Assembly (NCBI GenBank): GCA_027942475.1
Contig: JAQFVP010000001.1
Location: 13,962-77,961, forward strand
Source: Simkania sp.
GTDB lineage: Bacteria; Chlamydiota; Chlamydiia; Chlamydiales; Simkaniaceae
DNA length: 64,000 nt
Direction: 5' to 3'
The first letter of the stretch is position 1. Each line of letters starts with the position of its first letter. Under the pieces are notes generated by a model that was given only the letters and a program-made list of their open reading frames with translations, had not been told where the DNA came from and did not search any database. A program made the position numbers and the translations under genes. This document shows positions 31,089 to 31,486 of the stretch, piece after piece.

Positions 31089-31486
31089 TCCTGGACGAGC
31101 GGGAAAACCCACCCGCTTAAGGAGTGGGATGAAAGCTCGCCTGTCTATCAAAACTTTCTCCTTCAAATATTGTAATCTTCTTTTGATTTTTAGGCCTACG
31201 TGGTATCATACCCAGTATGAAGAAAAAAACTCGTTCGTATTCAGACTCCGGCCTACTATTAAACAAAAGCGCCTTTTACAAGAACAGTTAGACGAGTGCC
31301 GGTGGCTATGTAGTGAGTTTTTGGAGCAGCGAAAGCTTTCCTTACGAAGAGCTCGGTCAATCCCTTCAGACGGAAACAAGATAGACAGAGATCATGACGC
31401 GTCTTGAGAATATTTTGGCCCTCGGACTAGATGGCCTTAAGTAGCAAACCTAGAAGCTCTCGCCTTTAGGCGAGGGAGTAGTCACC
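31089..31486 (+). mobile_element. family A internally deleted IS200/IS605-like (TnpB-type) element, copy A2
   Basis: Left hairpin cccacccgcttaaggagtggg. TnpB N-terminal (SFVFRLRPTIKQKRLLQEQLDECRWL) and C-terminal (IDRDHDAS / LENIL) fragments. Right hairpin ctcgcctttaggcgag, ending gggagtagtcacc. Confidence 0.65.
31217..31430 (+). pseudogene. tnpB remnant (N- and C-terminal fragments joined by deletion, frameshifted)
   Basis: The ATG at 31217 is out of frame with the FVFRLRPT... reading because of an A7 run. The DRDHDAS-stop is followed in another frame by LENILALG (compare the TnpB DRD.NAA.NIL motif). Confidence 0.5.

Follow-up and report, generated by a model that had tools for sequence, protein, structure and literature searches.

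What is the 396-bp segment that lies between the 153-aa ORF at 30570-31031 and the gene for an OPT-family transporter (Pfam OPT) at 31497-33365 in the window, the whole 64-kb stretch of DNA analyzed here, and can it still move? The original prediction read this segment as an internally deleted, MITE-like TnpB element of the IS200/IS605 family. We place a probability of nearly nine in ten on the reading that the segment, hereafter A2, is a dead copy of an IS605-group insertion sequence of that family, whose ancestor spread in a tnpA-less form and then decayed copy by copy. A2 is a pseudogenized, doubly deleted copy from which tnpA and most of tnpB are gone and in which both hairpin ends are kept. 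What is left is the two ends, ~52 N-terminal codons and ~28 C-terminal codons, and no protein is encoded. The surroundings are ordinary chromosome, with mutL, an OmpR-type regulator, an IspD fusion gene, a sensor kinase, frr, pyrH, tsf, rpsB, tRNA-Gly and glgC.

Results

Extent of A2 and remnants of tnpB

The ends of A2 were set by comparison with more than 40 related elements. The outer bases are 31090 (CCTGG...) and 31485 (...GTCAC), and bases 31089 and 31486 belong to the flank; the element originally delimited as 31089-31486 (398 bp) is therefore present but was drawn one base too wide at each end. Every feature that had been listed for it, namely the hairpins, the ATG, the A7 run and the tnpB termini, was found in the sequence (Table 1).

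Table 1. Features of A2, of other copies in the window and of the closest full-length relative, L039. Coordinates are those of the window except in the last row. LE, left end; RE, right end; R1, covariance model of the RE.
Feature	Position	Strand	Basis or remark
Left flank ATAAT	31085-31089	+	site of family target/TAM pentanucleotide
LE	31090-31141	+	86% identity to L039 LE
LE outer stem, around inner hairpin	CGAGC 31096-31100 with GCTCG 31135-31139		
LE inner hairpin CCCACCCGCTTAAGGAGTGGG	31108-31128		read in sequence
Final recognizable tnpA codons, TGELSS (L039 TnpA, ...IDGELSSRP-stop)	31127-31144	-	six-frame translation
tnpA deletion junction AAATAT/TGTAATCT	31170/31171		alignment; ~363 bp missing vs L039
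Leader upstream of tnpB	31171-31216	+	homologous to L039 3955-4000 (alignment)
tnpB 5' remnant, ~residues 1-52 (HTH/WED N-terminus)	31217-31372	+	Pfam, NCBIfam, tblastn, family HMM
tnpB internal deletion junction	31370-31384		blastn blocks A2 vs L039: 142-264 = 4016-4137; 296-396 = 5043-5141
tnpB 3' remnant, IDRDHDAS / LENILALGLDGLK / KPRSSRL-stop	31381-31469	+	matches relatives' C-termini; frameshifted, in-frame stop
RE, also 3' part of presumed omega-RNA scaffold	31384-31485	+	R1; 80-91% nucleotide identity
RE helix 1	31417-31420 with 31433-31436		intact in A2
RE helix 2	31438-31449		destroyed in A2
RE helix 3	31457-31464 with 31469-31476		intact in A2
RE hairpin CTCGCC-TTTA-GGCGAG	31459-31474		
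RE terminus GGAGTAGTCAC	31475-31485		
Solo RE relic	26665-26762	+	ends ...GGGAATAGTCAC; compensated hairpin CTTTGCC/GGCAAGG; R1 36.5 bits, E 1e-7
Copy A1	27522-27757	+	LE, tnpA deletion as in A2, tnpB residues 1-24 and 52-69 (tblastn), RE hairpin, then GAGTAGTCAC
Copy A3	39748-39938	-	TTTAT/LE, tnpA deletion as in A2, first few tnpB codons only
Solo RE relic	62189-62290	+	ends ...GGAGTAATCAT; R1 40.1 bits, E 9.5e-9
L039 element (L039 coordinates)	3511-5141		LE at 3511; tnpA 3930-3538 (minus); tnpB 4001-5125; RE end 5141

The ATG of tnpB at 31217 is followed by the A7 run (31223-31229), which carries a 1-bp deletion (-1 frameshift) relative to full-length L039. A second frameshift, +1, lies near 31341-31343, and the N-terminal remnant therefore runs on as YEELGQSLQ to ~31369. 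The N-terminal reading is SFVFRLRPTIKQKRLLQEQLDECRWLCSEFLEQRKLS; three frameshifts have accumulated in all. When repaired, the 55-aa N-terminus matches Pfam PF12323 HTH_OrfB_IS605 at 29.7 bits (E 4.4e-7), above the curated cutoff of 21, and NCBIfam TnpB models at E 7.6e-5 and 2e-4. Consistent with this, tblastn with L039 TnpB gives 71% identity over 41 aa (E 1e-13), and a family-specific TnpB HMM gives E 7.8e-13. The proposed resemblance of this fragment to IS605 OrfB/TnpB is thus borne out, including by the HTH model that the original prediction had named.

The deletion junction postulated inside tnpB could be placed by blastn against L039 (Table 1). The deletion spans ~residues 53-346, roughly 880 bp, and removes the RuvC-I/II core and the zinc ribbon; because the RuvC core (PF01385) and the zinc-ribbon/TNB domain (PF07282), both present in L039, are gone, A2 tnpB is a pseudogene in which only the RuvC-III RD segment and the tail remain beyond the junction. 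In this tail, IDRDHDAS-stop occupies 31381-31407, with the Asp codon at the RuvC-III RD motif position at 31390-31392, and LENILALGLDGLK follows in another frame at 31403-31444. The matching C-termini of relatives read ...SRDLNAAENILALGLDGLEVIPRSLRL in the TnpB protein P0009 and ...HRDHNASQNILALGLHSLGVSPRSLRL in L039, and ENILALGLDGL of A2 is an exact 11-mer of the P0009 C-terminus, in agreement with the earlier reading of IDRDHDAS and LENIL as a TnpB C-terminus. The 29-aa C-terminal fragment has no Pfam or NCBIfam match and reaches only E 0.32 with the family HMM, being too short for a protein E-value; its assignment to TnpB is nevertheless secure, because the peptide matches relatives exactly and the region lies inside the RE covariance-model match at the DNA level. 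The original frame continued through KPRSSRL to the TAG at 31467-31469, in the loop of the RE hairpin, and intact relatives are alike (...PRSLRL-stop). Several relatives end ...RDLNAAENILALGLDGLEVIPRSLRL, which contains ENILALGLDGL exactly, and KPRSSRL-TAG is therefore the original end of the ORF.

Full-length relatives

A word-index search of the joined fragments against a collection of 5.8 billion proteins returned as its best match a 109-aa TnpB fragment (P0001) from a Simkania MAG, at 75% identity; no intact protein closely homologous to the window's own TnpB N-terminus turned up. A profile search gave hundreds of relatives. The exact LE pattern had 0 matches in the genome contigs of GTDB representatives. 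A protein-profile scan of species-representative genomes yielded 80 loci, mostly in Chlamydiota MAGs (Simkania, Parachlamydiales, Rhabdochlamydiaceae), more than 40 of which match the last 77 bp of A2 at 80-91% nucleotide identity. Where a locus includes the whole upstream flank, with tnpB beginning at 4001, similarity to the A2 RE stops at ~5138, roughly 1.14 kb downstream. About 30 loci carry intact tnpB ORFs of 374-380 aa, all of which end ...CCTAGAAGCC-hairpin-GGAGYAGTCAC, with similarity stopping exactly after CAC. At least 20 of the retrieved loci also have a Y1 tnpA (130 aa), immediately upstream of tnpB and on the other strand. The full-length layout in Chlamydiota MAGs is thus LE hairpin, tnpA (Y1 HUH, minus strand), tnpB and RE, and the existence of these full-length elements in relatives upholds the IS200/IS605 assignment.

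The closest relative is L039 (Simkania sp. IP30a_bin.2), whose TnpA is a PF01797 Y1_Tnp protein (E 1.4e-41) and whose TnpB carries PF12323, PF01385 and PF07282. A2 aligns with it in three nucleotide blocks, the LE at 86%, the 5' part of tnpB at 75% and the RE at 82% identity. The alignments indicate that the ancestor was a two-gene IS605-type element with tnpA and tnpB. A2 is not an autonomous member of the family, since its own TnpA is missing; tnpA has been deleted down to ~6 terminal codons, and A2 is a non-autonomous derivative.

A further relative, on Simkania MAG contig JANQSR010000145 (L002, 682-1181 and 1270-1880), is a decayed copy of A2's sub-lineage with an independent tnpA deletion. 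Its SFVFR segment is duplicated and its tnpB is truncated to 109 aa; beyond it come a tRNA gene and the beginning of a phage-type integrase. In-frame mini-TnpBs were also seen (P0009, 212 aa; P0022; P0099, 230 aa; other metagenomes), in which the N-terminal ~140-160 residues are joined to the zinc-ribbon/RuvC-III tail. Since these proteins are without the RuvC-I/II core, such internal deletion recurs in A2's TnpB clade.

Hairpin ends and target site

The left subterminal hairpin and the right hairpin with its terminus, as originally described, are both present (Table 1). As DNA, the LE folds at -11.1 kcal/mol (z -2.6). Pairing in its inner helix is 91.9% over 17 elements, both partners have changed in 4 pairs, and slid controls reach no more than 48%. 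The outer stem covaries on direct reading, the window lineage having CGAGC/GCTCG where others have CGCGA/TCGCG. For the RE, a covariance model (R1) built from 33 foreign REs only, with no window sequence, matches the 102 bp of A2 at 78.8 bits (E 2.7e-19). Over the last 100 nt of the family, pairing in the three helices is 98.4% and both partners have changed in 8 pairs; 0 of 500 shuffles scored as high. Because single-sequence DNA folds of RE regions are no better than shuffles (z ~0 to -0.7), the evidence for the RE hairpin is covariation and not energy. The final ~95 nt of the relatives show ~87-97% column identity, and the structured region overlaps the 3' end of tnpB and the RE and stops at the transposon boundary. 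The A2 RE covers all 100 model positions, with helix 2 destroyed and everything upstream of 31384 deleted. No Rfam family matches the RE, either with the window at gathering thresholds or with A2 and the full L039 element at permissive ones, which returned only tRNAs and noise. By reading, neither of the A2 termini (CCTGGACG... and ...GTAGTCAC) is the inverted repeat of the other, and the LE and RE helices covary; the view that hairpin ends take the place of terminal inverted repeats therefore holds. Chance resemblance and a REP-like repeat were considered for A2 and ruled out by the protein and covariance-model statistics.

Directly 5' of the LE, 13 of 17 aligned elements carry the pentanucleotide TTTAT, as does A3. 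A2 instead has ATAAT, a departure that we count against our main reading; its flanks joined as an empty site would read ...AAAATAAT/CTATTTTAAACATG.... Other copies in X1, a coral-reef metagenome run whose contigs carry the same genome at ~340-380x depth, have the flanks ...GTTAT/ and ...TTTAG/. No direct repeat flanks A1, A2 or A3 by reading, that is, there is no target-site duplication. Taken together, the aligned boundaries define TTTAT/ as the likely family target/TAM and ...GGAGYAGTCAC/ as the family terminus.

Other copies in the window

The original prediction had A1 and A3 sharing the left ~130 bp of A2. Both copies proved real by self-BLAST, with A3 92% identical to A2 over the left 146 bp and A1 85-87% identical; the bounds of A3 needed adjustment (Table 1), and A1 has an RE as well. 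The RE of A1, with the hairpin CTTCCCC/GGGGGAG, matches R1 at 32.4 bits (E 1.3e-6). A3 has lost its RE hairpin and retains only GGAAGTAGCCAC, so both ends without coding capacity are kept in A2 and A1 and not in A3. R1 has four significant matches in the window, namely A2, A1 and the two solo REs, and just upstream of the solo RE at 62189-62290 is a possible zinc-ribbon remnant, KLCNNC, a weak HMM trace that is not significant. All window copies lie on the plus strand except A3. As had been stated, no intact transposase or TnpB is present: tblastn with the L039 proteins and the family HMM found no intact TnpA or TnpB of A2's family in the 64 kb and, beyond A1 and A2, no further TnpB or TnpA match.

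The first bases of the A1 LE (tCTGGATGAg, 27522-27530) supply the TGA stop of an OmpR-type response-regulator ORF (26724-27530), and A1 is therefore inserted at the very end of that gene; the solo RE at 26665-26762 lies just upstream of the same gene. The other solo RE abuts the 3' end of a 327-aa ORF (62290-63273, minus strand), whose match to NF011786, the model for the SPI-2 type III effector cysteine hydrolase SpvD, is weak (E 4e-14) and falls far short of the cutoff.

What looks like a second hairpin-ended relic of a different kind, family B, occurs at 21246-21599 (+) and 28547-28612 (+). Its parts are an LE-like block that contains the hairpin ATCCCCTTTAGGGGAT, a short ORF, MPKPKKENIRQRQLKLKLTKKQESELNRWMFH, with the look of a TnpB N-terminus and no Pfam match, and an RE-like end, AAGAAGCTC-ATCCCC-TTTA-GGGGAT-TGAGAGCTGTCAC (R1 16 bits, E 0.03). 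The copy at 28547-28612 is a solo left block, 95% identical. In one X1 contig, a family-A LE is joined to TGAAAACACGC, the start of the family B block.

History and copy number

Alignment of A1, A2 and A3 with L039 and L002 revealed one junction common to all three window copies, AAATAT/TRTAATCT, which removes ~363 bp, all of tnpA but its last codons; the tnpA deletion of L002 differs from it. The tnpB deletions differ among A1, A2, A3 and the X1 contigs. Because the tnpA junction is identical in the three copies, a tnpA-less LE-tnpB-RE derivative appears to have spread, and since each copy has a tnpB deletion of its own, the 396-bp form itself is probably no amplified MITE. The label "MITE-like" that A2 had been given is thus apt for the non-autonomous, tnpB-only derivative and not for the 396-bp form, which shows no sign of amplification. 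In principle, the copies could also have come to share the junction by gene conversion instead of by transposition of a form already deleted.

In X1, the LE and RE reach depths of ~3300-4500x, ~10-12 times that of the flank, and the interior is at ~one copy or less, which suggests ~10-12 end copies per genome from contig depths. Five further distinct internal joints have depths ~0.8-1.6 times the flank depth. This excess of ends over interior is also what would be seen if the 396-bp unit and its siblings formed a still-mobile PATE or MITE, mobilized in trans by a TnpA encoded elsewhere and with ends selected for transposability. IS605 PATEs are documented in other bacteria (PMC10055086), the shared tnpA junction means that a non-autonomous form did spread, and A1 and A2 keep LE and RE and have lost the interior. 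However, every copy seen has a different internal deletion and no deleted form is clearly above about one copy's depth, the copies are 8-15% divergent, A3 is without the RE hairpin, two others are solo REs, and a tnpA was not found in the window. X1 contigs aligned at 80% identity or more covered only the ends of the full L039 element and not tnpA, a weak test given its insensitivity, since the known 75%-identical N-terminal part also failed to be covered. We therefore regard continued mobility of such a unit as unlikely, and favor copy-by-copy decay after the spread of a tnpA-less ancestor.

The history of the dead copy would then have run as follows. A two-gene IS605-type element would have lost tnpA by the ~363-bp deletion, and the tnpB-only derivative would have spread to several sites, presumably with TnpA supplied in trans. 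Copies would subsequently have eroded independently, A2 losing ~880 bp of tnpB, acquiring three frameshifts and losing one of three RE helices, and some copies would by now be only solo REs. A2 itself is most likely an inert relic, although TnpA supplied in trans might still mobilize it, its LE and terminal RE hairpin being well enough preserved.

Mechanism of the intact family and the fate of the right ends

From knowledge of the IS200/IS605 family and published accounts (PMC10055086, PMC8612924), we propose how the intact family would work. A Y1 HUH TnpA would recognize the LE and RE subterminal hairpins on single-stranded DNA, excise the top strand and re-insert it just 3' of TTTAT without target duplication, in single-strand peel-and-paste fashion. 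TnpB, together with an omega-RNA from the 3' end of tnpB and the RE, would re-cut empty TTTAT-flanked donor sites, leading to restoration of the copy. The RE of A2's family is, by analogy, presumed to act as this omega-RNA.

This raises the question of whether the A2 RE has been exapted, as an orphan guide-RNA gene or a cis-regulator of the downstream gene, for use by a TnpB or a nuclease-dead TnpB-like protein elsewhere. The guide of A2 would be the 16-20 nt 3' of the RE, overlapping the OPT start codon at 31497. The RE is structured and, at 80-91% nucleotide identity throughout the phylum, no part of the family is better conserved; that of A2 stops 11 bp before the OPT ATG, a solo RE stops at 26762, ~24 bp before the likely start of the response-regulator gene, and PATE-borne omega-RNAs acting in trans have been proposed (PMC10055086). 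However, helix 2 of A2 is destroyed and ~100 nt of 3' sequence is left, the other RE relics are more degraded (32-40 bits vs 79), and the window holds no TnpB. In addition, none of the would-be guides that follow the REs has a second, TAM-flanked match in the window, a promoter and terminator scan of 30900-31600 gave counts at the shuffled expectation, with promoter signal not above chance, and an intergenic site is expected for any tolerated insertion. Exaptation of the A2 RE is thus very improbable, and there is only a very slim chance that the surviving REs as a group (A2, 26665-26762 and 62189-62290) are orphan omega-RNA genes used in trans for homing or adjacent-gene regulation. Decay of a dead IS605-group copy remains our preferred account of A2.

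The host and its neighboring loci

The host is probably a coral-associated chlamydia, on account of the chlamydial relatives of the element, a syntenic locus in a Chlamydiae MAG, a sigma factor and the coral reef metagenome run. The sigma factor in the window matches NF004562 over its full length, and a single run, labelled coral reef metagenome, contains the greater part of the sequence (0.77 of sampled words). Simkaniaceae are known from corals (PMC11070183, PMC11809670). The syntenic locus lies in Chlamydiae MAG nzgw618 (L081), where 1545-3757 corresponds to window 41486-43221 at 49-61% amino-acid identity. It is followed directly by an LE and tnpB start of A2's IS family, at a position near, and not the same as, that of A3.

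Elsewhere in the window, 56665-61904 (minus strand, GC ~34-43%) holds three tandem paralogous genes of 565, 248 and 746 aa that share a C-terminal hydrophobic module (...LEKYLNLYGKIPFI...MDLAYCIHG.ANILR...), present twice in the 746-aa ORF. They have no NCBIfam matches and may be Inc-like membrane or effector proteins of an intracellular bacterium.

Discussion

A2 is an ordinary fossil of a common type, from a known transposon family, and nothing about it challenges current understanding. Its value lies in annotation: three intergenic repeats and two further solo ends in the window are explained as IS605-type debris, and so are the breaks of short-read assemblies at relic sites, as in the Logan contig with the neighboring OPT gene, which begins inside the RE. 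Within one genome the copies form an erosion series that would lead from a two-gene element through a tnpB-only form and 200-400 bp shells to solo REs. A Chlamydiota-wide IS605 lineage with defined ends, a probable TTTAT target/TAM and a covarying RE may also be mildly useful for TnpB and omega-RNA mining.

Comparison with known systems places A2 closest to IS605-group insertion sequences such as IS605 and IS608 of Helicobacter pylori and ISDra2 of Deinococcus. They share subterminal imperfect hairpins at both ends without terminal inverted repeats, a Y1 HUH TnpA and a TnpB (in A2's full-length relatives), insertion 3' of a fixed pentanucleotide without target duplication, and a conserved structured RNA region in which the 3' end of tnpB and the RE overlap. 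The divergent arrangement of tnpA and tnpB in IS605 is also that of A2's relatives. However, the A2 family forms a separate lineage, distinguished by its ends (LE CC..GGACG.., RE ..GGAGYAGTCAC) and target, TTTAT, where IS608 uses TTAC and ISDra2 TTGAT, and A2, unlike these elements, has lost tnpA and ~80% of tnpB. Another IS605-family element in the same phylum is IScs605 of Chlamydia suis, which was acquired with the tet(C) island and has a different target.

A2 also resembles PATEs, the MITE-like IS200/IS605 derivatives described in Haloquadratum (PMC3119063) and Geobacillus (PMC10055086), in being a short, non-coding, multicopy unit with LE and RE hairpins and no transposase. PATEs, however, are typically near-uniform, amplified short units, whereas each window copy has its own deletion and recognizable tnpB termini, and the window copies thus look like independently eroding tnpB-only elements and not one amplified PATE. 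The inferred LE-tnpB-RE ancestor of A1, A2 and A3 was, without tnpA, like an IS1341-type element. The tnpB-only arrangement is the commonest organization of tnpB, ~75% of which have no tnpA nearby (PMC10055086). What sets the window copies apart from IS1341-type elements is that their loss of tnpA can be traced to one ~363-bp deletion, the scar of which, the 3' end of tnpA, has been kept.
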